Positions 5,851 through 58,196 of a stretch of 64,000 nucleotides of DNA are shown here, one piece after another; within the stretch, counting starts at the first letter, position 1, and the number at the start of each line of letters is the position of its first letter. The position numbers and the translations under genes were made by a program. The notes beneath the pieces were generated by a model. It saw nothing but the letters and a program-made list of their open reading frames with translations, was not told the origin of the DNA and did not search any database. Source of the DNA: Eledone cirrhosa (lineage: Eukaryota). Location: assembly GCA_964016885.1 (NCBI GenBank), contig OZ024743.1, positions 34,906,001 through 34,970,000 of the forward strand, written 5' to 3'.

Positions 5851-6196
5851 GATACGAAATTACATATAAGTTTTAACGTAGTTGGGTCCCTTTATTTCTG
5901 AAAATAATTATTTAAATACTAATTAATCAAGAATATACATTTATAACATTATTGTAATATTTGAGATTTTAATTCTCAAAAGGTTAAAAAAATAAAGTTA
6001 ATTAAAAATTCGTAAATCTCATTTTTTCAAAACCGGTGTTAACAGAAAAATATTCCTGGTCGAAGTGTTACTTTCTCTTGTATCTGTTATTTGCCACCGC
6101 CTTCATGTAAATACATACATATACAACTATTTAATTATCTCTCATAAGGGACAAGCGACATAACCGCTTTGTTTAAATAAATTTTAAATTTCGAAG

Positions 6197-17235
<11,039 letters not shown>

Positions 17236-17371
17236 TTAAAACAAATCGACCCCTATTCTCAACAATCAGACTTTATTTTTCCAACACAACCATGTTATAT
17301 TTATTCATTTCAAGTTTGTACAGCTTCAAACGTTTTGAACTATGGCTTGAAGAAGCCTAACCATTGTGAGA

Positions 17372-17377
17372 AATAAA
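17372..17377 (+). terminator. Candidate polyadenylation signal of RABGGTB
   Basis: AATAAA about 140 nt after the stop codon, with a GT-rich stretch downstream. Confidence 0.45.
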
Positions 17378-18289: not shown

Positions 18290-18630
18290 ACTGAGTGCTT
18301 GTTATCGTGTCGCCAAAACGACCATCTAACTGGGTGAACTGGTGGACGATTTTTGTCATGTCACCTTACAGAGTGGAATGAGTGCTTTTTGTCGTGTCAG
18401 CAGCACAACTATCTTACAGGGTGGATTGGCTGCTTTTTGTCATGTCACTATCACAATCACCTTACGAGGAGAAACTGGGCACTTTTTGTCATGTCACTAG
18501 CATGACTACCTTACAGTGTGGACTGGGCGCTTTTTTTCGTGTCACTAGCATGATCACCTAACAAGGTGAACAGGACACTTTTTATTGTGTTACCAACACA
18601 ATCACCTTACAGGGTGGACTGGGTTCTTTT
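18290..18630. repeat. Minisatellite, ~45-bp unit, inside a SINE-B copy
   Basis: Repeated ACCTTACAGNGTGGACTGGGYGCTTTTTGTCATGTCACTAGCA. Confidence 0.8.
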
Positions 18631-19403
18631 TATCATGTCCCGATGTGCAATTAAGTGTGAGAGAAAGGCAGAGCTTGGATGAGCTGAGAGAGAGGCTAGG
18701 TTGAAGAGGAATCCGAAGAGAAGACTGCATTGGTATGGACATGTGATGCTCATGGACAATGATCATTGGGTGAGTAAATGCCAGTGGAAGGAAGCCATAG
18801 TAGAGGTAGACCAAGAAAGACCTGGACTGAGGTTATGAGAGTTGACCTCAAATTACTGAGACTCAGAGGAGATGACAAATGAACGCAATGAGTGGAGAGA
18901 TGCCATGCTGACAAGGACCTACATAAGAATGGAAAAACTGACGTAAATAGGATGGTGATTATGTATGTTTGTGCAGTGATACACATGTAATATTAAATAT
19001 TCACCCTTGCTCATTCACACATATATATATATGGGAAAAGGAAAAAGAGAGTGGCGAGATATAAAAGAGGAATAGTTAGCAATAGACAGTGTAAATGAGT
19101 AATGGAAAGAGGTAAAAAGTACAAAGTGTGGCAGAAATGGAGGAACAAAAGATTGTTATATAAAATGGAGATACACACAAACTTTTAGAAATACTTATTA
19201 AATGTAGAAGAGGCAGTGCCCATGCCCTTTGCAGGCTCTTGTAGACCAACTAGGTTGATGCTGTTGATATTCAGTTTAAATTGATGCTTATGGGACAAAA
19301 ACAAGAATATTCACACATTGAATATAAACATGCTCTAAATAATATATTCATACAAAGTTGCAATAATTATTTTTTTAGAAATTGTCCACTGAGTCATCTC
19401 TTT

Positions 19404-19431
19404 CCAGTGCAACGTCGGGTGCTACCGCTAG
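19404..19431 (+). mobile_element. Helitron-like 3' terminus
   Basis: CCAGTGCAACGTCGGGTGCTACCGCTAG|T resembles the end of the 26336-26982 element. Confidence 0.55.
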
Positions 19432-19841
19432 TAACTTAGTATTTTTATTTTTACTAACAGTAAATATTAAGGGAGATAACTGTGTTTATTTTGCTTTACT
19501 GAATGCCCTTTTGATTGAACATTCGGAAGAATTGACGTACGATTTATATACAGGTACATAAACAGAAGTATTAGGACAGAGGATCGCAAAATTATTTTGA
19601 TTTTAGATAAATGTTCTGTATATCTTAATGCTGAATGATGCTAGAAAATGGTCATACCTTTCGTTATTTACACCCCCCCCCCCCTTAAAACATAATAATA
19701 TGATTCATAGCTGATTTGCGTGAAAAGCACTATAAATATTTATATCTCTACTTGGAGCTTTTAAAAATTATATATACCTTTTTATTGTGTATGATTTAAA
19801 AACATTAGTCTTCACTATATAGATCTATGATTTTCTATGTA

Positions 19842-19890
19842 CTAATAATCCGGCACTTCGTTTAGTCCGGAAAAATTCCGACATGGCACC
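19842..19890 (+). mobile_element. Remnant of the Tigger left terminal/subterminal repeat
   Basis: TAATCCGGCAC...TAGTCCGGAAA is typical of Tigger-like ends. I see no clean TA-CAGT terminus and no matching right TIR. Confidence 0.45.
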
Positions 19891-20006
19891 TGAAATTTCT
19901 TCGACCGTCAGACTTGGGTGCAACTATTTACTCTACCATTGTGATTGTTGGTTCTCAATTTTGTGCGATATTTTAAAAGTAATTTTACTGACATTTAACC
20001 TTAGAT

Positions 20007-21632
20007 ATGGCTTCTAAGAAAGATGCAAGTGTCGGTTGTGGTGTAAAACGTAAACACCAGTCTATATCGATACAAGATAAAGTAGAACTATTGCATAAAC
20101 TGGACAGTGGCGTTTCAATACGGAAACTGTGCGAAATATATGGTATCGGTTCATCAACTGTTTATGATATTAAGAAGCAAAGAGAGAAGCTATTGAAATT
20201 CTACGCCGACAGTGGTTGTAAGAAGCAAATGAGTAGAAGAAAAACTATGAAAGGCGTTAAGAGTATTGAACATGAGCGACTTATGAAAGAGTGGATTAAT
20301 CAACGTCAGGACGAGGGAGAGGAATTACCTAGCAGTATGTTAATGGAACAAGCTAAGGTTTTCCATCGTCAACTTAATTTAGAATATGAATGCGACTATA
20401 GTGAAGGGTGGCTTCATAGGTTTAAGAAGCGTCACGGAATTTCCTTTCAGAAAGTGTGTGGGGAAAAATCATCTGTAAAACACGAAGGAATTGTCGAGTA
20501 CGTTGAGAAATTTTCTAAACTTATAGCTGAAGAAAACCTCACACCCGAACAAGTGTATAATGCTGATGAAACAACATTATATTGGCGATGTATACCTAAG
20601 GACATTTTAAGAAAAGACGAAGAAGGGTTAAAACGATCTAAGGAAACTGTCACCATTCTAGGCTGCTCAAACGCAGCAGGCACCCATCGATGTAAGCCAC
20701 TTGTTGTAGGAAAAGGTAAATGTCCTATTACTTTGAAAGACATGAAAGATTACCCAATAATATACCGCACAAATAAAAATGGTAACATTACCACAGGGAT
20801 TACCCTAGAATGGTTACAAAAATATTTTGTGCCAGAAGCCAGAGCGCATTGTACATCTATAGGTCTACCAGAGGATTGTAAAATTCTTCTGATTTTGGAT
20901 AACTGTTCCACTCACCCTAATGCTGAATTATGCCAGAAAAATGTCTTTACCTTGTATTTACCACCAAAGTGTACATCACATATCCAACCGCAGGAGCAAG
21001 GAATACTTCACTGTATGAAAACAGAGTATCGCTTACTTTTCATGAGACATATATTAGATGTAGTAAATGCTGAGAGGCCTTTAGAGACGTTTTTGATAGA
21101 ATTTAACATAGAAGACCTGCTTTATTATGTTGCTAATGCTTGGCAGAACCTGCCAACATCAATACTAAAAGCAGGTTGGTATAAGTTATGGCCAGATTTG
21201 ATGTTTGAAGAAAAGCGTCGTGATGACTTAAGAGCATTCCATCTAAGAAAGGAAAAAGAAGTTGTTGATGAGTTGCTGGATTATGCAGAGAACGTTACAG
21301 GATATGTTGCAAAGACCGTAGCTGATAAACTTAATAATGAAAACCTGTCTGAATGGCTAAGTATCGACGAAGTATCACCTATTGTCTATCACTATATTGA
21401 CCCTGATATTATAGATGCTTCTCAAATATCTGGTACAAACGAGGAAAATACTGAAGAATGCAATAATGAAGGTAAAGAAGAAGACGAAAGATTTAGTATT
21501 GATAAGATAATTGATTTATTGGCTGAAGTAATTACAGGGTTAGAACAACGTACCTTTATGACTGAACAAGAGCTAATGAATCTGTATTTGATATATGAAA
21601 AACTACAAGTGGAAAGATCAAAGCAACTGTAA
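20007..21632 (+). CDS. Tigger/pogo transposase-derived protein (JRK/TIGD/CENP-B-like), intact single-exon ORF, 541 aa
   Basis: KRKHQSISIQDKVELL...YGIGSSTVYDIKK (HTH-psq); SEGWLHRFKKRHGI (CENP-B-type HTH); DDE_1 motifs VYNADET, LILDNCSTH and IQPQEQGI; acidic C-terminal region. Confidence 0.92.
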   Translation: MASKKDASVGCGVKRKHQSISIQDKVELLHKLDSGVSIRKLCEIYGIGSSTVYDIKKQREKLLKFYADSGCKKQMSRRKTMKGVKSIEHERLMKEWINQRQDEGEELPSSMLMEQAKVFHRQLNLEYECDYSEGWLHRFKKRHGISFQKVCGEKSSVKHEGIVEYVEKFSKLIAEENLTPEQVYNADETTLYWRCIPKDILRKDEEGLKRSKETVTILGCSNAAGTHRCKPLVVGKGKCPITLKDMKDYPIIYRTNKNGNITTGITLEWLQKYFVPEARAHCTSIGLPEDCKILLILDNCSTHPNAELCQKNVFTLYLPPKCTSHIQPQEQGILHCMKTEYRLLFMRHILDVVNAERPLETFLIEFNIEDLLYYVANAWQNLPTSILKAGWYKLWPDLMFEEKRRDDLRAFHLRKEKEVVDELLDYAENVTGYVAKTVADKLNNENLSEWLSIDEVSPIVYHYIDPDIIDASQISGTNEENTEECNNEGKEEDERFSIDKIIDLLAEVITGLEQRTFMTEQELMNLYLIYEKLQVERSKQL

Positions 21633-22700
21633 CGAATTTTCTGGGAGGAAGTGAAATTCCCAACCTGAAACAGTTCTTGTAACAGACAACTTTCTATTGA
21701 ATTGACAGACCATCTCTGGTCGTTTCACATTCTGGATTTATCTTTATTTATAAAGATTAACAAGATGAATCGATAAGGCATAATAATGGTTTCTGATTTA
21801 GGCACAAGGCCAACAATTTTGATGGACTGGGAAGTCAGTTAAATCAGATCCAGTGCACTACTGGTACTTTATAATATCGATCCTGTATGGATGAAAGGTA
21901 AAGCTAACCTCGTGCATGAGGTTGAACTCAGAAAGAAGTGCTGAACACAAATACTGCTAAACATTTGTCCCATGCTCTAACAACTACCAACACTACATGC
22001 GTAAAACTAAAACCTTACTATTGTGCTGTTCCTGAGCAAAGCACATAACTCTGAGTACTTCAGTGCACTTGACTGACATACAAGTTTCACTCCCTACATC
22101 ATAGTTGAATGTTAAGTGTTACAAGTAAAACTATCTCAGTCATGCTAGCACAAGAAAGAGGGGCATTAAAAAGGATATGTTTAATGTATTTGCATCTGAA
22201 AACTCTAATTTCAAATGTACCACAACATATTTAATGCATGCTGAAACTTAACTATAAATCACACATTAACATTCCAATTTCCATAAATCTGGAGTTACAT
22301 CGAAAACTTAAACTTTCCACCTTTGGTGTTGATAATATTTAAAACATTTCTGTATGTACAAATATTGATAAACATGTATTATTTTGACTCAGCTAACTAA
22401 AATGAATCATTGTTTTATTATTTCATCAAAGGGTGTAATTTACATACCACTAATGTAGTTTTGAATAGTATTACATATGGTGGGTACTAACATACTTAAG
22501 ATAGTGAGCCGAGAAATGTTAATGAATTAAAATTACCTGGTAATGATGAAAAAAAATAATAATCATCTTAATTATTTTTCTGATCAAGAAAGGTAAGGAA
22601 TACAACCCTGAAATTCAAATTCATTAAAAACAGAATGCAGTAGAGAGTAAGTTTGATTTTTGTCAGTAAATTAACAACAACTGTTCACTACACAGTTCAC

Positions 22701-23749
22701 TTAAGCCTTTAGCATTCACATTACTCTATATTTACTACTGTACTTTCACAGAAAAGGTTTTATCTCACATAGCTATGGTGCGGCCACACTTAAAATTTGC
22801 ATCACCAGTCTGGAACCCCTATCTTGCTCGGGACATTGACCTCCTGGAAACTGTTCAGAGACGTGCAACCAAGCGAATACCTTCCATCAGGTATCTACCA
22901 TATTCTGAACGCCTTACTTCCCTGGGCATGGATACATTGAAGCTCCAACGTCTGGCAACTAACTTGGTAAACACCCACAAAATTATTAAACATCTTGCCA
23001 ATAACAACCCTGAGCACCTTTTTGAATTCCATGTGTCTAACACCCATGGACATGCCTACAAAGTCAGAAAACAGCAAAGCTCCCATGACTTTCAGAAACA
23101 TTTTTTCACGCTCAGAGTTGCTGAAGCATGGAACAAACTGCCTGCATCAGTTGTTAGCTGCCGAGACACTGCATCTTTTAAAACCTCCATGCTTTCTAAA
23201 ATTCGCCAACACTACACCTGATATCCCCCCTCCATACACACACATGTATATCATGACTCATATACTGTTCACTTTCCTAACATTTGTATATTATTCTATG
23301 TACTATACATGCACCTTTGATGAGTTGTAGTGCACCTGAGCACTACACAATAATTTCCATTATATTCCAGACCCATGCTAGCGTGGAAAATGGACGTTAA
23401 ACGACGATGATGATGATGATTATATAAGGGTGGTGGATTGGCAGTATCAGTAGAGGGTCGGACGCGATGCTTTGACGCATAGAGTTACGCCCCTTTCCAT
23501 TCTGAGTTCAAATCCCGCCGAGGTTAACTTTGCCTTTCATCCTTACGGAGTCAATAAAATAAAGTACCAGTAATGCACTGGGTATTTGCTGACCTTGTGC
23601 CAAAAGTAGAAACAATTATTATTATATAATTATCTCAGTATCGAATCTATGAGAACAATACCTTAACATCAGTATGAGTGGCTGGTTACGACTGGTTTGA
23701 AAAGAAAGGGGTGAGAGAATTCTGGCCGGTTTAAATGCTAAAGGGTTAA
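22701..23749 (+). mobile_element. piggyBac-type MITE interrupted by a CR1 3' fragment and SINEs
   Basis: Left part 22701-22771 and right part ~23626-23749 are collinear with intact copies. Confidence 0.78.
22768..23362 (+). mobile_element. 5'-truncated CR1-like LINE (RT C-terminus plus 3' UTR)
   Basis: MVRPHLKFASPVWNPY...LETVQRRATKRIP...FFTLRVAEAWNKLP, closely similar to the element at 46.5-49.9 kb. Confidence 0.9.
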
Positions 23750-25714
23750 CTCTCACTGGGCCACTCAACTTAGCTGTAAATAGGTAATATGAGATAGGTA
23801 CAACTCACCACCATAGCAATAAACAATAATAAATATTTTGTTGACTTGTGTTGTTGAGTTCAAAGTATGTGTTCTTGGAAAATGCTATGAGAATCCACTT
23901 CCGTGTTTTGTCTCCTGAAACTACTGAAGATACATCATCTAAAGAATCACTAAGGTTATATTGAGGGTGAAGTTTTAAATATACATTTCTGAAAGGTATG
24001 TGAGTTTCACAATCCAATTTCCCCTCTCCTAAAATATGTAGTTGGGTATAGATTTAAGCAAGTGACGGTAAAGAGTAAGTACTTGGTAATAGACAATTCT
24101 TAAAGTTGGGTTCAATTCCCAATTGAAATTAGTTTCTTATCCATCTAACTTCATTCCTTATTGAGTCATGTTTGTTACATAACCTCATCTCTTTTCTCCA
24201 CACATTTTTGCTATTGGGGTTCTTGTAAGAAATCTATATGGTTTTATTTCTGAGATTAATCAACTTATAGCATGTTCTTCATGGACAGCTATTTGATTAA
24301 TTAATCTAAATAATTGTCTCTACTTTAGGTACAAGGCCAGCAATTGAAAGGGGGCGGGGTCAATTAAATCGACTACAGTGCATTACAGGTGTTTTATTTT
24401 ATCAACCCTGTAAGGATGAAAGGCAAAGCTAATCTCAGGGGGATTTGAACCGAGAGCGTAAAGGGACATAACTATGTCGCTAAGCAATTTGTCCGACACT
24501 CTACTGATACTGCCAATCCACCACTCTTAATCTAAATAATACAAAGTATATTAGATTAATAGTTCTAGCAGTCCTTACAATGATTAATTTCTTTGTAATA
24601 TATACATATATATATATCATCTTTATCATCATCATTTTTATGTCTGCTTTTCCATGCTTGCATGGGTTGGATGGCTCCTCAGCACGGCATCTCTCCACAT
24701 GTTGCGATCCTTTGTCATCACCTCTGTGTGTCTGTAATTTGAGGTCATCCTGTTGAGTCATTTTTGTATGCCATGATTCTGCCCTTCCTTACAGAGTCAA
24801 AACAGCCTATATTTGGTATTTTCTGGCATGTTTACATGCCTACATATTAGATATATGTATATATTCATATATGTTGGTGCAGTCTCAGTTACACACTCTG
24901 TATTTATACAGATATAACTTTATATATATGAAGGAGAAGCTGGATTTAAAGGAACCCAAGGTGGTGTGCAGGAGAGAGGACATCTGATATGCACGTATGA
25001 TGATCGATGGATGAAGAAGTGCCAGTGGATGGAAGCCACAGTAAAGGTAGACCAAGAAAGACCTGGGCAGAGGTAGCAAGAACTGACCTCAAATTGCTAA
25101 TAATCACAGAGATGACAAAGGGATGCGGCAAGTTGTGAGATGGTGAGCTGAAAAGGACCCATCCAACCCATGCAAGCGGGAAAAATGGACATAAAAACGA
25201 CGACAATGATGATGATGTTGATGATTATTTGTGGTGTTTCCCTCGAATATCTTAATGACTCCATTCTGACAGAGATCATTGCATGTATAGGGACTGCCTC
25301 AGATAATTCTACTTGTGTTGCCAGGATGCAACTACAACTTCGATATAAAACATGAAACAATATTATCCTCCTAGTTTTAATTAACTTATTTAAGAGCTTA
25401 AATTAAGGATGAGTGAATATCTGTTTTTTCACACAATGAATTCCCGCTACGATAGTGCTAAGTGGCTTTCCTCTATGAAGACCATGTGATACAACAATAC
25501 TATTGGATTATTACCTACTGTGACAGCCAGATAGAAGTTGGGTATAAATTGAAAGAATGCCTGCTGTTGATGATTTAGCCTGTTCTAATTATGTACAACT
25601 GTTAGATGCACTTACAGCTTATGAATGCATACTAGTAAATTGTGATGCATCAGAAACCATGAAAATCTAGGTCAGAAATTCTTTCCCTTTGTATACATTG
25701 TTGTTATATATATA

Positions 25715-25745
25715 CTAGACCACCCATGACCCAACGGGTCACATT
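25715..25745 (-). mobile_element. Helitron-like 3' terminus
   Basis: Minus strand: TGACCC-GTT-GGGTCA hairpin, short spacer, CTAG|T. Confidence 0.6.
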
Positions 25746-26335
25746 CACTTCAAAATATTTTTTTTAAATCTTGTTCACTTAAAAATAATTTTTAAATAAT
25801 TAAAATATACAGACATGTATATAATGTGAACTGAAACTGGAAGACCCATATATATGTGTGTGTATGTATATATATAAATGTGTGTGTGTATATCTATATA
25901 TATAAAACTGATGTTGTCTGTGTGTGTCCTCATTTTTGCAAAGTCTATACAAATCCACATTTCTACTCCGATTGACTTCAAACTTGCATTTATATATTCC
26001 GTGTGGTCTAAAGATATTAACTGCAGCTTTTATTTTTCAATTGTTAACAGGGTGTTAGGCACCAGTTATCCATCTCCGTAGCGCTCTTATAATATCTGTC
26101 TGTATGCCTGGCTGTCTGCATTACGACATTCTGACAAACATTGATCACGTATTATGTTCGCTATTTTCCGTTCTTTACCAGGGAACGTCTTCATGAAACA
26201 AAGTATCGTCTTCCTGTTGCAACGTTTTTCGAAATATTTACTTCTACGTTCACAGATTGATGTTTTTAGTTTCAGAAGATCCCGTTAAGGGTGAAAGCAA
26301 CGATTCATTGCTTAAACTTTAATGTGTTATTTTAA

Positions 26336-26982
26336 TCTACATATGTATATATATAAAACTGAGGAAGGATGTATGTATGTATGTGTGTGTGTGTGTGTGA
26401 AACCCAAGAAGTACCCAACCAATCTTTTTCAAACTTTACATGTGTATTACTTATGTTTCAGGGAGTGTTGTGCACATAAAAAAATTCAACTTTTTGATTC
26501 CCTAGGGCCCACATTAGGTGAAAAACTGCATTTTTTTTCCAGCTTTTTATGCGATTTTTGAGGCGTTACGTCAGACCGATTTCCTTGAAATTGTAATTAT
26601 GTATTAGTCAGTCTCTTCATACCGTGAGCAAAGAAAATCCAACTTTTTTATGTCCTAGGGCCTGCATTAGGTGAAAAACTTCATTTTTTTCAGTTTTTTA
26701 GGGCTTTTTTGAGGCGTTACGTCTAGCCGATTTTCCCGAAATTTCAAGGCATATTATGCACATAAAAAAATTCATTTTCTTGATCCCCTAGGGCCTGCAT
26801 TAGGTGAAAACCTGCCTTTTTCCTGCTTCATCGAAGAAAATCTTAGATTATCCAGCCATCAGAGTATTCGGTTTATTTTCTTTACATATTGTCCAGGCAG
26901 CAGTTTTTCCACAATTAGGTCTTGTTGACGGCCCGCATTCCAAAAATACCTTATCCCATGCAACGCCAGGTACCACTGCTAG
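26336..26982 (+). mobile_element. Non-autonomous Helitron with internal ~140-bp tandem repeats
   Basis: A|TCTACATATGTATATATATAAAA 5' end; CCCATGCAACGCCAGG...CTAG|T 3' end; three internal CCTAGGGCC...TTAGGTGAAAA units. Confidence 0.75.
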
Positions 26983-27559
26983 TATATAAATATATGTGGG
27001 GTGTCTGTGATTTTTATATGCACTGGTCATAGACACACACACACACATATATATAAACAACACCATCAGCTCTCTCTTTCTCTTCAGTTCTCCTGTCCCT
27101 CTCTCTATGTCTCTCTTTCAATCTACTCTCTCACAACCACTATCTCTTTCTCTCTATCCTTCTCTTTCTCTGTGTATCAAGGTACCCAGAAAACCCCATA
27201 TCTCAGGAACCTGTGCTTCAATTTACGCAAAACTTGTTTTATTCCATTTGTATTCCCATTTCACGCTCAACTTCCTTTCAAAGTATTTTTCCATTATGCG
27301 CCCTTTTTGGCTGTATTACATTACAGACAAGCAAGCAATCACAGAGTTTTAGCAATATATAGATAACTACCATACACCCACCTTGTATATTATTTTTGGT
27401 GTTTCCTTCGAATATGTAAATGAGTTCACTCTAATGAAGGAAATTAATTTATTTTTCACATCATAGAGTGTATAATGACTTCCTCAGATATTACTACTTG
27501 TGTTGCTAAGAAGATGCAACAACAACTTTAATGTAACACTTGAAAATATTATATAATCA

Positions 27560-29465
27560 TCACCATTTAACATCTGCTTTCCCTGCTAGTAAGGGTTGGA
27601 TGAGTCTACATAGACCAAGTCAGTACTGAAGCAAGGCCTCTGACATCCCAGACAGGCCAAGGATCTGTATTTCGCTTGCAAATGTTAATTATTGAGTGCA
27701 GAGAAGTTGTGTCATTTTACACAAACTAAAGGATCCTCCTAACACCTTCTTTGACAAGCTCTCTATGGCTGGATGCCCTTCCTATCACCAATCACTTTAC
27801 AGTGTGTGCTGGGTGAATTTATTGTGTAGCTCACCAACACCAAAGAGGTTGTGTCTTGGACACAGCTGAAGGGTCCTCTCAACCCTTTAACCCTTTAGCA
27901 TTTAAATTACTCTATATTTTCTATTGTATTTTCATGGTAAAGTCTTTATCTCACATAATATCGAATATATAAGATTTTGATATTTATTTTGAGAACAATA
28001 CTCTAACATCAGTATGAGTGGCCAGTTACAGCTGATTTGAACAGAAAAGGTGAGAGAATTCTGGTCAGATATGGCCAGTTTAAATGCTAAAGGGTTAAGG
28101 CAAGGTTTCTACAGCAAGGTGCCTTTCCTGTCGCCAACTGCCCATACAGAGTGTACCGGGTGCATTTTGTGGCATCATCACTAGAAAGGTTATTGGTCAT
28201 ATACCCAACTGTAGAGTCCTCTCCACTTTAGGAATGGAGTATTAGGGGAGAGAGATAAGTATTAAGTGATAGGTGTTTGTGAGGATAGGTAGGGGTGGCT
28301 GATTAGTGTATGTGGTCAATATGGTGGGGAAGTGATGGCTCGATAGGTAGGAGGTAAGGGATAGTGTAGCTGGTTAGTGTATGGGGAGAGGGGACGTAGT
28401 GGTGTGGGAAATATGGTCGATAGAGAGGTGGGGGGTGTTAAGGGGTAGTAATGGTGGTGAACAAGGGGTAGAGAGAGTAGATACTAGGGTGCAACGGTGA
28501 GGATATCTAAGATCTTTAAAGTGGGATAGTAGTTAAGGAGTGGGCATGGATGGTGAGTGCAGTAGTAGTGAGGATAGATGGTGGGGAGCGGTCAGGTCAT
28601 ACTGTATGCTTCTGACTAGGTCTTCCTCATCACAGCATAGTGCCAGCAATCTCGATCTTTTGTCATCTCAGTTGTGAAACTTAGTTTCTTCCTGGGTCTG
28701 CCTTTTCCTCAGGTTCCAGCCACTGGGATAGCTCTGTATTTCTTTATGCAGCTGCTATCCGCCATATGCATCACATGTCCATACCAGTGCAATCTTCTCT
28801 CTTGTACATTATATCCAATTCCTCTTATGCTAAGTTTTCCTCTCAGTTCACTTATGCTACATCATTCATGCACACTAACATTACACATTCATCAGAACAT
28901 ACTCGCTTCATTTCTCTCCAGCCTTCTGCAGTTAAGGTCCATGTTTCACTGCCATATAGCATTGCAATTTGCATGCAAGATCATAGTCTACCCTTCACTC
29001 AGAATGGGAAGCCCTTTGTTATCAGCAGAGGTATTAGCTCTCTAAACTTCTTCCAGCCTATTCTGATCCTGACTTTCACATTTCCAGGGCATCCTCCTCC
29101 ACTGTTAATTTGATCGCCTTAGTAACAGAAGTTGTTGACAACTTCTAAGGAGACTCCCTGGCAGCTGAAGGAATCTTCTTCACATGAGTTTTTAGTGCTT
29201 ACTTCTCCTGTGCATCTGCCACATACAATCTTATGTGCATAGATTGCACTGTGTACACCTTATAGAATTTCTGACACATCGGACAAGGTCATTTCCCTGA
29301 TGGTATCACTCTCTTATCCTCTTTCCTACTTATTAGCACTTTTGTCTTTACTTAGTTTAGCTTTAAGCCTTTCAAGTTTCTAACTCTTCTACAGATTTGG
29401 CTGTAAAGATTAAGGCATCAGCATATAAGAGCTTCTACAGTGTGCCAGTTTTTAAACTCCTTAGT
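27560..29465 (-). mobile_element. Old decayed RTE LINE 3' part (RT end, PHD-like finger remnant, C-rich 3' UTR, SINE-shared tail)
   Basis: Minus translation gives EFKTG...ELLYADAL, GDQINSGGGC...RIRIGWKKFRELIPLL, RWYGHVM, homologous to 52700-53700. Many indels. Confidence 0.82.
27887..28098 (+). mobile_element. piggyBac-type MITE copy
   Basis: Perfect TTAACCCTTTAGCATTTAAA / TTTAAATGCTAAAGGGTTAA ends. Confidence 0.88.
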
Positions 29466-29550
29466 GAAAGATGTCAAATATTAAACAAAAATGATGTTTA
29501 ATTCAACATAAATATATGAAGTAAGTGTATCATTTTCTACCGGTTTCTGC

Positions 29551-29770
29551 TTAACCCTTTAGCATTTACATTACTCTCTATATATTATTGTATTTTTGTG
29601 GTAAAGGTTACATAATTATCTCACATAATATCGAATCTATGAGATTTTGATATTATTTATTTTGAGAACAATACCTTAACATCAGTATGAGTGGCTGGTT
29701 ACAGCCAGTTTAAACATAAAGAGGTGAGAGAATTCTGGCCAGTTACAGCCAGTTTAAATGCTAAAGGGTT
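29551..29770 (+). mobile_element. piggyBac-type MITE copy
   Basis: Same TIRs and body. Confidence 0.85.
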
Positions 29771-29793
29771 GGTGCATAAATAAACCACTCTTA

Positions 29794-29830
<37 letters not shown>

Positions 29831-29834
29831 ACAA

Positions 29835-32800
29835 CAATAAAATTCAATATAATGTTTTATTTATTAAGACATGCAATCTGTTTTTTTTTTTTAATTTACT
29901 GTTTTTAATCCTGGGTATTCATTAGTATAAGGGGAGGGGAATAAAGTTAGGAATTTAACATATTTTACAGAAATATATAGCAACACTGCTGCTTTTTATT
30001 AATAGCTTGAACAGGAGTTATATTACAGGGTCTAATATATTTGGCAGCAACAAACGGTGTGTATACACAATTTATATACAGTTGCCAATTTACATATATG
30101 CATGTGGTGTCTTGATGAAACAACTATACATATATATACATATATATATATATATAGAAAGAAAGAGGATTATAAAATTTAGCACTCTTACAGTAATGGT
30201 GATGACACTCAAAAAGAAAACTGATTTCAAATATAAATGAATAGCAGAAGGAGACATAAAAGAAAATGAAAAGAGAAAAGAGAAAGAGAGAGAGTAAGCA
30301 GAAAAGCAAACATAAAAAAAAAGGAAATAAACCAAATATGAAGGGATCTGGCAGATAAAAAAAGCACCCTAATAAACTAAAAATTGTAAAGAAGTCTGTT
30401 ATGATTTAGAGAATGAAGTGATAGATGAAGATAAGAGAAATGCCCAGGAATGCGAGGTGATCAATCATCAACAATGTATCTGGTGCTTGGCTGCTAATGT
30501 GGAAATAAATATAGGCAAATCTTAAATAGAACAAAAAAAATTAAGTATGTAGGTAGTTCATGAGGAAACAGATTACATAAAATGAGTAGTAATGAACTTG
30601 ACAATGATAATAGAAAACCCTAGCTTAGATTTTCATGACCCTTTTTCTCTGAGATTAATGAACTAGCAAGAAATCATTGATATGAAGGCAGACAACGCTC
30701 TCTCTCTCTCTCTCACTGACACACACACACCAAACTCACAACAACATCAGCTAACTGACCAGGAAGTAAAGACATCATCGTTATTTAACATCTGGATGTG
30801 TTTACTTATATGGCAACTTGTATTAAAATATTTAACTATCAAGATGTAATATCTAATTATAAGATTACCAACTGGTAACCACTAATATAGTGGTGCCTAA
30901 CAGATTAAATCCCAAACTAGTAACAGGCAGACAATCAAATGGTGTGAGTGAGAAATGGTATAACAGAGGTCCTTCTAAAGAAAGACAGCATAGATAAATT
31001 TTGAAGAGAATTCTTGTGAAAATGTGTGGATTTCTTAAACAATTGGAGAAAAGAGAAAAACTAGCCGTTGCATTTTTTAAAAAATGGCAAACTGTATCAA
31101 CAATGTTGCATATTGTCAAAAATACTTCAAATAGCCAGTAAAAAATGGACACTAAATTTAGAACAAATATATGTGCTAAAACCTAAATGCCTAAGATAAG
31201 AAGATTTGTGATAAAAGATCTTTGTTCAAATAGGCAAGGTCATAGGAAGATATCAGTAAAGTAAAACTAGTTCCATTACATGAGTACAAACATTGTTGGA
31301 ACAGTGCTATAGTCTGGTACATACACATACTTACTATAGCTCACATTGTCAAATGGTTATAACATTTCCAACCATTTACATCACTGTACAAAGTCTCTAG
31401 TCTCCTTCATACACAGACCTGTTTTACTCACATATATGTATATATCACTCTGTGATCAAGATAACTGTGTATTCTTATAATTATCATTGTTGTTTTAACA
31501 TTCAACACTGGACGGTTGTGAAACACAGCTTATCTATCATGTTTCCACGTCCCTGACTTTATGTAGCCCAGGTCTCTTTAAATTTTGCTGTATTACAGTC
31601 CCTTCTAATCATCAACTCATAGTACTTTCTTACACTACAGTCATCATTCTTTTGAAGTATATATCAATGGCAACAAACTCATCACTCTTGCAGATATCAC
31701 AAATGTCTTTTAGACCCACTTACTTTCTCAACTCATATTGCACAATTTCAAAGATTGAAAGAAAAAAAAAAGCAATAAGTTCCAATATTCTTGAAGGAGA
31801 CAAACAACCGAGTTGTCAAGAGACTGTAGATGTATAAAGTTTAAAAACAACTCCTCCCATTATTAACAGGATAACATAATGTAGAAATAAACTACTGGTT
31901 AATCTTTAGGTAAAACACATTTGTGTCTACCAGTTACTTTACTTATATATCAATTTAATTACACTCCAGCTAATTCTAATAATGAGTTGAACATGACAAA
32001 CTGATAATGTTCAGTCAATCAAATGTAGATTATTGAAAATACCAATAAAATCCCTATAAAGCAGTATATCAATAAGTGTAGCCATAGACTGTTAGAATTG
32101 ACTACAACTTTAAAAAAACTATCAGCAGGTATTTTTTTAATAAAAAGAACAGTTGTTCTTAAATACATTCAATGGAAACTTTTCTGTCAGTTCTAGAGAG
32201 AATTAGTTAAAAGCCTTCTGCATCTATTTATGCAATATCTTTAATAGCCTATGTACTACAATAATTAATTCTTAAAATCCTATAATGATTTAGTAGAAAA
32301 TATCTTTAAAAAAAAAAACAGGTTTGCTGATTCAAAGGTTTATAGTATCTTTACTACTAGACAGTTCATTGTGAAAATGTTCAATATTAGAGAAAATACT
32401 TTAAGAGGTATTCAGTAAAAATAGTTTTGGAAGTTTGCATGTTAAACATGCTGCCATACAAGTCTAAAAATTAACAGAAATATCAAGTAAAAGCTCTGTT
32501 ATTCTAGAAATTTCTGAAGTTGGTTCAGTTACAGGACATTTTAGCAGTGAATTTGGCAATATCTTTTGGATATCTTTCATATAACTATTACTGATACAGG
32601 TAGAAAGAATTCAGCACTTTCACTGTAACTATAAACTAAAGTGTGTGAGTGGTTAAAGAAAGGTTGTGTCTAGAATAATTCACCATAAAATGCCCATACA
32701 AGAGAAAGTCAGTAAGTAATATTAACAGATGAATTTGACATAAAAAAGTTCATTGAAATGTTAATCATGAGGAGGAACATACTGTTGATGGATTAAACAG

Positions 32801-41100: not shown

Positions 41101-44100
41101 TCATTTGTTTCGGCCTGGATGGCGCGGCACCAACATAACTTTACATAGAACGGGGTGGTGTGGATGGGGTGGGGGTGGTGGCGGGACGGGGTGTAGTTTG
41201 TTAGAGATGCCTACTGGCAAGGCGGGTCTTCTCTGTTACTGAGTACCGCCAAAGGTCACGGTCCAGTGACATTGTCTTGGAGAGGTGTAAGTGTGTGAGG
41301 TCGGAGTTTATCAGCTCATCCCATGTTTTTCTAGGTCTGCCTATTCCGTGGCTACCGTCTATCTTTATTGCCCTGCACTTTGTAATACAGCTATCGACTT
41401 TCATGCGCATCACGTGTCCATACCAACGCAGCCTTCTCTCGAGTAAACAACATCTGATCCCTCTTATCTCTAAATTTCATCTTTATTGCAGTGTAGCCAA
41501 AGATAAGTCATCTTAGTTGAGTCTAACTTTTTCCAAGATATACTCACAAAGAGGAGGCTGAAAATGGCATTGTAACCCAACAAAACATTTTTCAGTTTTA
41601 TAGTGGGTCACTACTTACAACAGTGAGACACTCCCTTATAGTAACTACTGAAAGGTAGGTAGACTAGGGTATTGAGGATTAAATGTGCTGACACAGCACA
41701 GGGATACAAATAGCTAAACTTTTAACTGATAGACCGTGTATCAGAGAGTATCTGAGAAAACTAGTGACGGTCTCTTGGTAAATGCAAACTGTTCACAAAA
41801 TGGAAGATGCTAGTTAACCTGCAGAAAGACAATGCAGGGTTTACGCAAAACAACACACCCCTCTTCTTTTTCACAGCAAACTAACTTGTTCCCACTTTGT
41901 GAAATGTTTATATTTACTATATCAATTTGACAAAATGCGAAAAAATATATATATAATGCCGATAGTGATAAAATATACTGATGGCAAATGTACAATAACA
42001 TACTATATATTAACTCTTTAACCCTTTAGTATTTACTATATATACTATTGTATTTTCATGGTAAAGGCTTTATCTCAGATAATATCGAATCTATGAGATT
42101 TTGATAATATTTTGAGAACAATACCTTAACATGAGTATGAGTGGCTGGTTACAGCCTGTTTGAACAGAAAAGGTGAGAGAATTCTGGCTGGATACGGCTG
42201 ATTTAAATACTAAAGGGTTAAAGATCTAAATCTCATTTGACATAACAACACTATAATCTCTGACAATAGAATCATCTTTTAATTAATGGTAAGAGGAAGG
42301 AAAGGAGAAATAAATTGAAGCACTAATTACCTTGTAGAGCTGTGATGGTAATGAAAGATTGGAAAAGAAATGGAAAGAAAACAGGATTAATATTGGTTTG
42401 TTCAATTTTAAAGGAGAAATCAATGACAAATACAACTACATTTAAAAATACAATGCAGAATAAGTAATCATGCTAAGAGAAGCCAAGTGAAAAATCAATT
42501 ATACTAAGCTTTTAACTAGATAGTCAGGAATTCAAATTTTAATATCATTAATGGGATATACTTCAACCTGATTAACAACAACAGATTTTCCATTCCTATT
42601 TTACAGTTACTGAGTGGTAAGTAAAAAGGACAACCAGTTTCACTCTGATCCACCCCTACCCCATCCATCTTCACAAGCCTTAGTCTCTCTCCCCTGCCCA
42701 TTTGATTTAGCTCCTCCATCTATTCCCCTCTGCCTTAGTCTTCCCCTTATTCACATATGACCCTTCAAGACCACCCAATGAACTAACGTTTACTCTTTCC
42801 TTCTCTCACCCAACCAACAACAAGTTGGAAAGACAAGTGCACTCTTCAATGTACAATCAAATGTCACTCATTCTCTTCAAGGACACTCCCATGACCAAAA
42901 ACTTACTCTCCCTTTCCATCTCCTATTGTGAGATGAGTCCTTCCCTTGGCAAGTAAAATGCTGTAAAGTGGTTGGCATTATGAAGGGCATCCAACCATAG
43001 AAACCATACCAAAATGGAAGATACGAGGAAGCCGTGGACCTTTGGTTTGTCCAATTTCAGAACATGACGACTTGTCTAATCCATGCCAGCATGGAAAACA
43101 TATATTAAAAAATGTCTAAATGTCTGTGATAACTTGCTAATGAAATTATAATTTGAATATTGATTACAATTACCTAAAACTTTCACTGTAAAAAGGTGAC
43201 TACAACTGACATCAACCCTTTCGTGAACTGTGAATGTCTACAGAGCTGGTGCTAGCCTATGGCTTCTATTGTGTTGGATATTAGTCTAATACAAGTAGCC
43301 AACCTCAGAAATAAGGTATCAATTCCTACACAGCTAGGTAAATTGAGACAAAGCAAAATTAAATGTCTCACCCAGTCATAACAAAATGCATGTAGCATAT
43401 TTGAACACGCAATCAATGACTTGATAGTCCAATACAATTTACTTGACTCATCCATTGATAAAGAATGTGACTATTTGTTTGAACTGATGAGAAGTGTAGG
43501 ATTCAGTGAACATCAACACCTCAAATGCACATTGTGGCTCGTGAATTAGTGCTGGTGCCACACTAAAATGCACATGGTACACTCTGTAAAGAAGTCGGCA
43601 TTAGGAAGGACATTCAGGCATATATTTTGACAAAATATAGAATGTATGATAAAAGCATGGTATCAAAACTATTCTTGTCTCAAACCGTGACAACCAATAT
43701 AACCCATGCCAGCATGGAAAGCAGATGTAAAATGATGTTAATGATGAGGCCATTTTTTTTAAACAAGAAGCCTAGAAAAAATTTAAACAAGTCGAACCTC
43801 CATACATTGACAATAAAGTGGGTTGGATAAGATAAAAGAAGAAAATATACATACCTCTTTAGTTGGGTGAGATTTGTGAATCTTGATACGGTCATGCAAT
43901 CGGGCTTGTAAGTTACGAACTACACATGACATCTCACTGTTTTCTTTACGTAGTAGCTCATAGTCATCTAGTTTGCCAATAGCAAATAAGGAACGCAAAT
44001 CTGAGCTGATACGCACTGGTGAATTTGCTACAAAAATAGAAGTAAAAGTTATTGTTCAATAATATTTCTCTCTATGTAGAAAGTAATATAATCATTATTC

Positions 44101-47100
44101 ATTGAACAAGTCAGTAGGAGGTGAACTCTAATTCAATGTAACAAACAGTGAATTCTCAAGCTCAATCCTCAACATGACAGTCCATTTCATTCAGAAGTTG
44201 AAATATTACAGTAAAATTTAACCCTTTTGAAACCTACATACTTGAAACAAAGCCATTTAATTTTAAAGTGTTCCTTATTTAAATAAAAACATTCATCAAG
44301 TTATGCTATGTCACACGAGTGAATGTTACAAAAAAACCTTTAGCATGACATACCATAGCTACATTACAATAAATCTGTATCTATCACAATTGTCATAGTA
44401 GTATGAAGGTGAGCCATTTAAAACTTATCTACCAGACAATTTCTCAATCTTCACTTCACCACAGCCAGCAGGATGAAAGATCAAAATTGACTCTGGTGGG
44501 AGTGACTATATCTGGAAATCTAAACAAGGTCGTACACTTGGCTCATTAACCAACTATCTCTTAGTTTAGATAAACATTCTTGGCATGAAATATGATTTTG
44601 TTCAACTTATAGACACCATACATTGCCCACATTAGTAGGATATGATCAGCCTGTCTATAACTGATAGCAGGCTCAGGCCAGATGTGAAATGTAGGTCTCA
44701 CTTCAAATTACTTATCAAATACTTTAGCAATCAGTACTAAATACATATACATGAAGTGTACATGATGTACTTACAAGTAACAAAATAGAATAAAAGTTAA
44801 ACTTGGCTCTTTTCCAGTCATACACCTGTGCTTCAAAAAACATATGGCCAAGCCAGAAATTACAAAGAACAGAGTTAAGTGAATGTCAAAAATAGTTACC
44901 TGGACTCCCAGGTGGGTCAAATGACCAATATGTGATATGATCCTTAGCCATGGATAGAGATGCAGGCCAAGTATAGGACATGCTAGTTTTATTTAATAAA
45001 TCTTCTGTCCACTTAATATCTTTGTTGCCGTTGTTTGATTGGTTGTTTTCTAATTCTGACAACAAAAGGAAAATATTAATGTTACAAACTAATTTGAAAA
45101 TCAATTAAAATTAATATAGGAGAAATATTTACACTAAACAAAGAAAGCGAAAGCAAGAGCTTTAATATTGTCACATCTTCACATGTTTGCTGTAATATTG
45201 TCACTTGTTCATATTTCATCTCTTAATTGTCAAATTTATCGCTGTCACATCTCCACACATTTTAACATGGCGACAGCTCCACTTTAACATGGCAACAGCT
45301 CCACTTTAACATGGCAACAACTCCACTTTAACATGGTGATATCTTCACATTAACATGGTGACATCTTCACAACATTGTCACATACCTACTTTAACATGGA
45401 AACATCTCCACTTTAACATTGTCACGAAACAGCGAATCTAATAAAAGGATATGACAATCTCTTTAGTGATGGTGCTATGGTAAAATGCATCCAGTACATT
45501 CTGCAAAGTGGCTGGTGTTAGAAAGGGCATGCAGCCATAGAAGTCATGTCAAAAAGAGTAAAGAGTACACCATCCTAGTGCTGGTGCCATAACAAAATGA
45601 ACTCAACCATTCCATTCAGAGAAACTATGCTGAAAAGGACTGGAGAGAAATGTTCACTCACGTCAAGGTTGAGACAACCTCTCAAGTGGTGATGCCACCC
45701 AGTACACTGTGCAAAGTGGTTGGCATTAGGAAAGGCATCCAGCCATAGAGACCATGCCAAAATGGAATGTATTTTGATGAAATATCTTCACTAGGCCCAT
45801 CTAGCAGGATAGTTGCTCCAATAAAGTACTGACTTGATCTGGAACAACCCATCCAACCCATACCAGCATGGAAAATAATGATGATATGAATAATGTATTC
45901 TGCATCAATTACTCCAGAACACTATCACAGAGACATTTATGTAACAGAAATCGTGCTACAAGGTATTAAACAGCAAAACCAATAATTTATCCACTGAGTG
46001 GTATGTTGATATTTTTTTAAAGCTACAAACATTAAAAATGATTAGTAATATTTCCAGAATTCTAAATAGAAAGCTATAAAACCTCACCTTTGCTGCAGTT
46101 ATCAGAACCATTTGATTGTGCATTGGGCAAACTAGAATTCAAACTGCCAGCATCATCACAGCTGTCCATTGGTAAGAGTTTTAAACTATTTGTAACATCA
46201 TCATTCATGATATTAGCTAATTGGGAACCAAACAGATTACGAGACAATGATTGATTAGAGTGCTGGGCAACTGGAGGTGATGATGGAGAGTCAATTATGT
46301 CAATTGTCTGCTTTAACAACTCAGAGGTATTATTGCCATAGCTGGATGCTAATTCACTGTCTCCACTGCCATGGGCTACAAAGAAATAGAATGCAATTGT
46401 CAATGTTACACACATGAAAAAGACACCTAAAAAAACAACAATTATATATAATAATAATAATAATAATGAAATATTGTGTACAGTGCTCAGGTGCACTACA
46501 ACTCATCAAAAAGTGTATGTATAGTACATAGGGTAATGTACAAACGTCAGGAAAATGAACAGTGCATGAGTCATGATACACACATGTGTGCATGTGTATG
46601 GAAGGGGTACATCAGGTGTAGTTTTGGCGTATTTCGGGAAGCATGAGTGTCTTAAAGGATGCAGTGTCTCGGCAGCTAACAACTGACGCAGGCAGTTTGT
46701 TCCATGCTTCAGCAACTCTGAGCGTGAAAAAATGTCTACGAAAGTCATGGGAGCTGTGCTGTTTTCTGATTTTGTAGGCATGTCCACGTGTGTTAGACAC
46801 ATGGAGATCAAAAAGGTGCTCAGGGTTGTTGTTGGCGAGATGGTTAATAACTTTGTGGGTATTTACCAAGTCCATTGCCAGACATCGGAGCTTCAATGAA
46901 TCCATGCCCAGAGAAGCAAGGCGTTCAGAGTATGGTAGGTGTCTGATGGAGGGTATGCGCTTGGTTGCACGTCTCTGAACAGTTTCCAGGAGGTCAATGT
47001 TCTGAGCAAGATAGGGGTTCCAGACTGATTCCAAGTGTGGTCGTACCATAGCTGTATACAGTTTTAAATAGATGGCTGGAGAGCGGCTAACAAAGGTCTT

Positions 47101-49013
47101 GCTGAGTGATGCCAAGACACCCTCGGCCTTCTTGACAATCTTAGAGACATGCTTTGTCCAATGCAAATCGCTGCTGACAGTAATGCCCAGGTCACGTTCA
47201 CAAGAGGACTTCTTGATATCAGTGTTGTGGAGGGAGTATGTGGACGCTGGATTTTTCCTCCCAAAATGCATGGTGGTACACTTGTCCACAGCCAGCTTCA
47301 GTTGCCAGTCTGTGATCCATTGCTGCATTGTGTCCAGGTTTGATTGTAGGAAAGAGTTGTAGATTTCAGGATCAGTCCTTTTGATTTCAAGGTACAGCTT
47401 GATGTCATCTGCATATTTCAGTACCGTGGCATTCTGTAAGTTGGCATCTATGTCATTAATATATGCCACAAACAAAAGGGGACCAAGAACAGATCCCTGT
47501 GGTACACCAGATGACATCTCATATGGTGAAGAATGCTGTCCTAGAACCGTGACTACCTCTTTTCGGCTGAGAATGAAGGATTTCAACCAGTCGAAAAGAT
47601 CATCCCTCACACCCATTGCAGAGAGTTTTGCCATAAGTCTTTTGTGTGGCACAGAATTAAAAGCCTTAGCAAAGTCAAGGTAAACAACATCCACCCATGA
47701 GCCGCTGTCAGTGATCCGGGTGATGTCTTCAAGGAACTCGATAAGCTGATCACAGCAGCTGGAGTTAGGGATAAATCCAAACTGTGAGGGCCGGATGAGG
47801 CTGTGAGAGCTCCAGAAGTTCCAAAGTGTTTCTCTGACACTGGATTCCATCAGTTTGGCCATACAGCTAGTAAGACTGACTGGACGATAGTTGACAGGTG
47901 ACATGTGGTGCCCTTTTTGAACAGGGGAATGACACTGGCAGTTTCCACTGCTCCGGAGTAGCACCATTGTTGAGACAATATTGAAAGAAGAAAGAAAGCT
48001 GGCGCAAAAAGAAATACCCGCCACGTTTGAGAAGCAGGTATGTAACACCATCAAGATGAGAGGGGGCATAGTTGCGCTTATTCTTAAGGTGACGTCGCAA
48101 CATTGCAGGTGTAAATTCCATAGTTGTTATGGAATTTGATGTTAGAGATGGTGGAGATGGTACATTCTGGTTTTCAACAGTAAAAATACTTGCATAGCAC
48201 TCAGCAATGAGTTCTGCGCATTCTTTGGGATCGTCATTGATCTGGCTTGTGTGGGGATTGCGAAGAGGACCAACTGGAGAGTGAGGTCTCTGCTTTGAAT
48301 GAACATATTTCCAGAACACCTTACTGTCAGGATTGGTTGCTATGCACTGTTCAAATTCAAGCACTGCCTTCTTTGTCACTTGCTTGAGATGGTTAGAAGA
48401 TTTATTCCGCTTTTTTTCTGTTGGCATCTGATTTATGCAGTTTATATTCCCGTTCAGCGTTCCGACGTTCTTTCCTGGCAAGTCGGACCGCTGAAGTTTC
48501 CCAAATTGCACTTTTGGGGTGGTTCTTTTTCTGCTTACGTGGCACCGATGCTTCACACGCTATCCATATTGAGTCCAGGATGCTCTGGAGTATAGTGTTC
48601 ACATCTCCAGAGTTATACATCTCATGCCAGTTTGGGCGCTATAGCTCAGTGCAGTACAAGTTCCAATCCGCCCTCTTCCAATCAAAGCAAGCGGAAAGCA
48701 CCCTTTGGGGGAACACAGCCTAGGTCTTTGGCTGAGCTGGCAGCAAATGCCTGAAGATCAGCCTTGTCCTGTGGTACCCCAATGGCAATTACTTCATGGG
48801 TAGCAGATTCCACAGTCTTCTCAGTGTGCCCAGATACAGCAAGAGGTACAGGGAGATTCTTTAGCAAGGCATTCTGATAAGACCTCTCATTGTGGAGTCC
48901 TACCCGAATGCTTGCCTTTATTCCTGTTACTTCCCTTCTTAAAGCAGAAATCATTAGTTGCAATTCTGCAAAATCTGTACTGGTCGGTTGTTGTTGTCGT
49001 TGTCGCCGCCGCC

Positions 49014-49103
<90 letters not shown>

Positions 49104-58033: not shown

Positions 58034-58196
58034 CTGGAAACAGAACAAACAAAAGAGAAAATATTAAACTACAAAATCATTAGCTAACAGTTTAAAAGAG
58101 AAAAATATATCTACATATCATCCAAGATATAATGTATATTATTTGTACAAGTGCTATTTACATAGTTACAATATAATATATATAAGAGCAAATGCT

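Follow-up and report, generated by a model that had tools for sequence, protein, structure and literature searches.

A probable domesticated Tigger transposase gene adjoining RABGGTB in octopods

The locus and its transcripts

The stretch of Eledone cirrhosa DNA analysed here (the window; 64,000 nt of contig OZ024743.1, positions 34,906,001 to 34,970,000) contains, on the forward strand, the RABGGTB gene and, downstream of it, a single-exon open reading frame (ORF) of Tigger (pogo) transposase origin (Table 1). RABGGTB was rebuilt as ten exons coding for 332 amino acids (aa), with the donors at 9104 and 13002 in phase 1 and the other seven in phase 0. A 48-bp tandem array (18363-18639, 5.8 copies, 73% matches) lies between the two genes. 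A preliminary description of the window, made from the letters, had singled out the ORF as a 541-codon frame without interruption among transposable elements that are all broken, and both observations hold: the frame is open from its first codon to its last, and the remaining long transposon ORFs, those of LINEs, are split. One of these elements, an RTE-type LINE at 50676-53700 (+), is nearly intact and probably young; it carries a PHD finger in its C-terminal half, and its endonuclease-reverse transcriptase (RT) frame is split by a single frame change near 52603-52622. The second LINE lies in pieces at 46612-49767 (-), with an RT frame of 485 aa and an upstream frame of 324-361 aa, possibly ORF1, which contains cysteine clusters and poly-H/poly-Q tracts and has no Pfam match. 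Exons of a coiled-coil host gene, presumably resembling myomegalin/CDK5RAP2, are found at 43783-58076 (-) and would provide a downstream synteny anchor.

Table 1. Features of RABGGTB and of the transposase-derived gene in the window
Feature	Position	Strand	Remarks
RABGGTB, upstream neighbour and synteny anchor	6073..17377	+	ten coding exons 6197-17235; AATAAA 17372
Decayed left end and subterminal transposon DNA, now likely 5' UTR	19815..20006	+	start approximate
Branch-like TACTGAC and acceptor-like AG	19986-19992, 20003-20004	+	inherited transposon sequence; weak; not conserved in O. bimaculoides; bridged unspliced
Tigger (pogo) transposase-derived gene, single-exon ORF, 541 aa	20007..21632	+	from ORF list, domain and homologue searches
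First helix-turn-helix, CENP-B_N, aa 14-65	20046..20201	+	aa 1-65: 59/65 identical with O. bimaculoides
Second helix-turn-helix, HTH_Tnp_Tc5, aa 90-149	20274..20453	+	44/60 identical with O. bimaculoides
DDE_1 RNase H-like domain	20565..21179	+	triad D187, D298, E330 (DD31E)
C-terminal helix pair past acidic linker, aa 496-541	21498..21626	+	39/46 identical to Octopus
Likely 3' UTR	21633..22170	+	high-copy repeat ~21780-21930; RNA contig ends 22161, ATTAAA at 22165

The gene is transcribed, as seen from contigs at depth 3-6 in one RNA-type run, X4. The run was classed in this way because one of its contigs (1258 nt) joins all ten RABGGTB exons through nine GT-AG joints (6073-17370). Over the transposase gene, the contigs span 19965-20144, 20647-21807, and 21795-22161 (180, 1161, and 367 nt). 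Cover is absent from 19338-19899, from 20145-20646, and beyond 22161, and at depth 3-6 it places neither the start nor the end of the transcript. A poly(A)-type hexamer follows directly after the end of the RABGGTB contig (17372) and of the transposase contigs (22165), which is a weak hint of transcript ends there.

Architecture of the protein

The ORF encodes the Tigger-type architecture of the pogo superfamily, CENP-B_N followed by HTH_Tnp_Tc5 and DDE_1, with the DDE_1 match spanning aa 212-391. It had been described as intact, which is true of the reading frame but needs qualification for the encoded transposase. Compared with the multi-copy relatives of frogs and coelacanth, which carry a DD32D triad and a tail of 70-80 aa, the third catalytic residue is glutamate and the spacer preceding it is one residue short (31, not 32). 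The protein also ends ahead of the tail, a coding remnant of which was sought and not found. The DD32D triad of these relatives, expected of an active Tigger, is absent from all three octopod proteins considered here (this one and the two Octopus orthologues presented below), each of which has DD31E.

The AlphaFold model of the protein (pLDDT 80) begins with two helix-turn-helix (HTH) domains; an RNase H-like core comes next, and an acidic linker, disordered in the model, separates it from a C-terminal pair of helices. Among known structures, it most resembles Mos1 and the DNA-binding domain of CENP-B, the latter (1HLV) with a TM-score of 0.73 over the target and an rmsd of 3.1. Across octopods, the protein is best conserved in aa 1-89, the DDE core, and its C-terminal 46 residues, and least in the linker; within the DDE domain, identity is 84-86% (152/180). 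Two variant sites were seen in related runs, one synonymous (20177) and the other a K321N replacement (20969), in which N is the Octopus residue.

Copy number and transposon ends

The number of copies, proposed earlier as a check, was examined in the 3.0-Gb genome of the species itself by DNA and protein searches that score the best candidates only, among which a near-identical copy would rank first. No near-identical dispersed copy, such as an active Tigger would have, was recovered. The DNA search with the ORF returned 13 non-self matches, the best of them 68% identical over ~555 bases, and in the protein search, in which the best 80 of 739 candidates were scored, the 79 others are 26-38% identical. 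The same genome contains further uninterrupted pogo ORFs, L016 (G000:C3:41986989) and L017 (G000:C12:44607916), of 543 and 586 aa, which are placed on long separate branches and are candidate domesticated genes or recent elements.

The DNA preceding the start codon, from about 19815, was identified as the decayed left end of the element itself because fossil copies of the family align back to approximately this position. It is colinear, by eye, with the cDNA of O. bimaculoides, and RNA cover enters it at 19965. When this left end was used in a DNA search of the own genome, a single non-self match and no MITE family were recovered. The right terminal inverted repeat (TIR) was searched for in 21633-30000 (8.4 kb downstream), with matches of no more than 14 nt. 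The remnant left end without a right TIR, as originally described, was therefore confirmed for this interval; paired TIRs with a TA target duplication, as in an active Tigger, were not found, the decayed left end standing alone. A single copy that has lost its mobility ends is what is expected of a domesticated gene. A short decayed fragment of a second Tigger DDE domain (19577-19680, 78% identical to 20869-20945) is located upstream of the left-end remnant.

Orthologues in Octopus and phylogenetic position

The top protein match is XP_014774435.1 (LOC106872090) of O. bimaculoides, in a cluster that also contains O. vulgaris CAI9719723.1, the same as O. sinensis XP_029633793.1. The window protein is identical to the former at 422/538 positions and to the latter at 430/539 (78-80%), and all three octopod proteins have in common the replacement of the third D by E, the 31-residue spacer, and the same early stop. 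The neighbouring RABGGTB of the window is identical at 318-320 of 332 positions to those of the Octopus species and at 284 of 332 to that of cuttlefish, which would place the DNA in an octopod whose distance to these Octopus species exceeds that between the two.

Synteny downstream of RABGGTB, another of the checks proposed earlier, was read from consecutive accession numbers, on the assumption that accession order follows gene order. In O. vulgaris, RABGGTB (CAI9719722.1) and the transposase gene (CAI9719723.1) are both on a 182,420,136-bp contig; in O. bimaculoides, XP_014774433.1 and XP_014774435.1, respectively, are both on a contig of 168,056,177 bp, and in the EukProt set of this species, they are P006991/2 and P006993. 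Accession order and shared contigs in two Octopus assemblies thus show, indirectly, that the gene occupies the same locus as its Octopus orthologues, adjoining RABGGTB. No additional orthologue from squid, cuttlefish, or another octopod was present among the 103 near-length or 32 shorter matches of a word-based search, which would not by itself indicate absence.

In trees that took in 47 and 25 of the fetched relatives, the window protein and its Octopus orthologues form a clade with 100/100 support on a stem of 0.44, nested among transposon-like sequences. The closest relatives outside octopods, 55-58% identical, are the multi-copy elements of frogs and coelacanth. Orthology to JRK was rejected, as the tree grouping the octopod clade with mammalian JRK failed the AU test (p-AU 1e-46); the label “jerky homolog” denotes similarity only. 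Annotation names several relatives in the Tigger clade as isoforms of unrelated host genes, namely TOM1L2 (turtle), MTERF3 (shark), MIPOL1 (frog), and SMIM8 (rodents), and one, in lobster, is fused to BTB (P0010, P0038, P0129, P0089/P0090, and P0067/P0069 in our set). These isoform names and the built-in AG before the ATG, described below, suggest that the clade may act as an exon trap family-wide.

Selection on the reading frame

The ORF is under purifying selection, as shown by pN/pS relative to fossil copies and by neutral simulation. The first comparison used eight fossil loci and ~609 columns covered by at least three fossils, and changes seen in a single fossil served as the neutral control; L006, L008, L010, L011, and L014, which represent the same places or near-duplicates, were left out. 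The gene lineage gathered 24 nonsynonymous changes, no stop, and 32 synonymous changes (pN/pS 0.19), whereas the fossil-private changes comprise 128 nonsynonymous, 11 stop, and 26 synonymous ones (pN/pS 1.07; Fisher p 8e-9 for the contrast), although this contrast may include selection that acted before the ancestor had ceased to be a mobile subfamily. The pN of the gene lineage (0.05) is lower than that gathered by the dead copies (0.12-0.13), which also carry many frameshifting indels.

In the neutral simulation (kappa 3, AT-rich, no indels), an average of 8.6 stops had arisen once divergence reached the level corresponding to 80% identity, rising to 17 at d = 0.24, and an open frame was kept in 0 of 300 runs at every level of divergence. 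A by-eye alignment with O. bimaculoides shows that the 5' UTR differs at 32 of 157 bases, and the coding sequence shows no difference over its first 41 bases. Neutral evolution to the distance of the UTR would leave an expected protein identity of ~60%, compared with the 78-80% observed.

The gene as a probable domesticated transposase

We consider it very probable that the locus contains a single-copy, octopod-conserved Tigger-derived gene just downstream of RABGGTB, the product of which is likely a stand-alone, non-transposing DNA-binding protein and not a fusion exon. Domestication, one of the two readings offered in the preliminary description, is supported by the single copy, the Octopus orthologues located by RABGGTB according to accession order, purifying selection, and RNA cover. 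A Tigger transposon would have inserted just downstream of RABGGTB and subsequently lost its right end. Transcription may proceed from a promoter of its own, located within the old left end or shortly before it, to a putative poly(A) site near 22170, with expression presumably at a low level. The two HTH domains of this presumed nuclear protein would contact DNA in the manner of CENP-B, with the RNase H fold and the C-terminal helices possibly retained as a scaffold or dimer interface. CENP-B dimerises through its terminal helices; by analogy, the octopod protein possibly does the same. Since no right TIR was found in 21633-30000, the gene would be unable to mobilise itself. The protein probably does not cut DNA, but E330 alone is no proof of inactivity because Tc1 elements are active with E as the last residue of the triad.

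The triad, still D-D-E, the conserved DDE domain, and the well-predicted RNase H fold would also suit a protein retained as a functional nuclease, as a transposase acting in trans, or as a repressor of related Tiggers, instead of as a host DNA-binding regulator. This is decidedly unlikely. The protein's own family consists only of fossils with frameshifts and stops, and neither young copies nor partners were found in the searches. To our knowledge, no transposition has been reported for mammalian JRK. That protein, too, retains a DD32D/E triad (PMC7386202).

The acceptor-like dinucleotide and RABGGTB

The preliminary description had interpreted the sequence before the ATG as an acceptor, serving either a non-coding first exon or an exon of RABGGTB. 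The branch-like heptamer and the AG, two bases before the ATG, are indeed where they were placed, and the donors at 9104 and 13002 are in phase 1, which makes in-frame fusions of 680 and 772 aa conceivable; the phase-0 donors joined to 20005 give a stop after 14 codons. Since RABGGTB has both phase-0 and phase-1 donors, two of the three possible phases would have seemed in frame. The acceptor itself could not be upheld. A crude model trained on the nine RABGGTB acceptors proven by RNA assigns the AG -2.9 and those nine real sites 1.6-11.0. Scores at least as high are reached by 31 of 159 intergenic AGs and by 894 of 3906 AGs in the window; the acceptor-like AG is not more than chance would give. 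Its branch-like A is only 13 nt away, and the usual distance from branch point to AG is 18-40 nt. YYTAG precedes the start codon by two bases in 6 of the 7 fossil loci that could be aligned there, or in 5 of 6 when only independent places are counted (L009 did not align at the start codon), and thus the AG came with the transposon. The cDNA of O. bimaculoides (PMC10027918 supplement), although colinear by eye through the left-end remnant, has neither the AG nor the heptamer. In the E. cirrhosa RNA, the contig 19965-20144 matches over its full length and crosses 20004/20005 without a splice, 40 of its letters lying before that point and 140 after it. The 13 listed joints do not include 20005, and the contig of RABGGTB shows no break at 6199, 9104, or 13002, in what is one low-depth run of contigs from which rare variants are dropped. 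The element is also not intronic, being situated 2.6 kb past the AATAAA of RABGGTB, where the RNA contig of the latter has already ended, and so lies outside the host transcription unit. The AG is therefore best regarded as a relic.

Fusion and spliced forms, taken together, are improbable, although a rare or tissue-specific spliced form may exist, X4 being one run at depth 3-6 and contigs only. The less improbable of the two variants is a domesticated gene with a main mRNA in which a non-coding first exon, such as RABGGTB exon 1 (end 6199), is spliced to 20005 and translation starts at the gene's own ATG. Joining exon 1 to 20005 puts the exon 1 ATG out of frame and leaves that of the transposase usable, the cover of X4 would leave room for a more distant 5' end, and the exon-trap hint from the family would fit. 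We nevertheless judge this very unlikely on account of the unspliced contig across 20004/20005 and the ~310-nt 5' UTR of the O. bimaculoides model (a predicted, RefSeq-type one), which is colinear and without the AG.

Even less probable is an alternative terminal exon of RABGGTB, with exon 4 or 7 spliced to 20005 in at least some tissue of the lineage. The phases of the two donors, the AG here and in the fossil loci, the host-gene isoform names in the clade, and the loss of rare variants from contigs could all be cited for it. As the main product, such a fusion was rejected on the weak and unconserved AG, the unspliced contig, and the position past the poly(A) signal, with RABGGTB itself recovered as one unbroken ten-exon contig. 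The fusion protein would be without the DVCYSWW (238) and DPFHT (287) motifs of RABGGTB, which we take to be the site of zinc ligands, and no protein combining prenyltransferase and pogo domains occurs among 103 matches or among 120 listed of 365. The model for this arrangement is CSB(ERCC6)-PGBD3, in which the start codon of the transposase is likewise preceded at a few bases by an acceptor-like AG, and splicing to it from a host donor of the same strand preserves the frame (PMC2268245). However, PGBD3 is described there as intronic, with an acceptor perfectly conserved across primates and an abundant fusion mRNA, whereas the octopod element is past a poly(A) signal, the O. bimaculoides cDNA lacks its AG, and RNA reads through the site.

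Finally, a young or horizontally acquired transposon copy, open by chance, is ruled out for practical purposes by the lack of near-identical copies among the best-scoring candidates, the decayed left end, the absence of a right end from 21633-30000, the derived marks and RABGGTB adjacency common to Octopus, and the neutral simulations, even if the multi-copy relatives in frogs and coelacanth suggest past horizontal spread of the family.

Comparison with known systems and significance

Reading the locus as a domesticated gene places it beside JRK, JRKL, TIGD2, TIGD7, and CENPBD1, the mammalian genes derived from Tigger (PMC7386202). As in the JRK/TIGD group, the whole transposase has been kept (~520-570 aa, CENP-B_N + HTH_Tnp_Tc5 + DDE_1) in a single copy. 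As in JRK, the third catalytic residue is altered (DD32D/E in JRK; PMC7386202, Table 1), identity between orthologues is ~75-80%, and the selection ratio is near 0.2 (JRK Ka/Ks 0.207, PMC7386202; octopod pN/pS 0.19). Unlike JRK, the octopod gene has DD31E spacing and is nested among transposon-like sequences, as an independent event. The tandem HTH DNA-binding domain followed by an acidic linker and C-terminal helices, as predicted in the model, would resemble CENP-B, which, unlike the octopod Tigger gene, derives from pogoR (PMC7386202).

The O. bimaculoides gene (LOC106872090/XP_014774435) is already listed among transposon-derived transcription factors, on the HTH-Psq sheet of supplement file 3 of PMC10027918, where pogo domestication in Octopus is reported in general terms. 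In the head rows of the two selection matrices of that work, no other octopod is among the compared rows, and the word “synteny” does not occur in its main text. No literature devoted to the octopod gene itself was found in main texts. To the contents of PMC10027918, the present analysis adds orthology, genomic position, the decayed ends, and selection specific to the lineage.

Conservation in the protein is highest in the first HTH region, a hint that the ends of the family are still recognised. In a comparison by eye, the left-end remnant also differs from O. bimaculoides at 7 of its first 59 nt and the remaining UTR at 25 of 98, a weak contrast drawn post hoc. One could imagine an octopod-specific transcription factor that recognises the ends of its own dead Tigger family, regulates itself through the remnant in its 5' UTR, and wires a network of dispersed sites, although we regard this as rather unlikely. 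Lineage-specific networks of this kind have reportedly been proposed for SETMAR and PGBD3.

Outside vertebrates, few domestications of transposases are well supported, and the gene next to RABGGTB would be an example from the octopod lineage in which orthology, position, decayed mobility apparatus, selection, and expression are combined. From a separate insertion, it appears to have converged on the pattern of JRK, with the whole transposase kept, the third residue changed, and the tail lost. An acceptor-like AG before the ATG, a built-in feature of this Tigger family, is by itself no evidence of fusion to a host gene. The protein is a candidate octopod-specific DNA-binding regulator.
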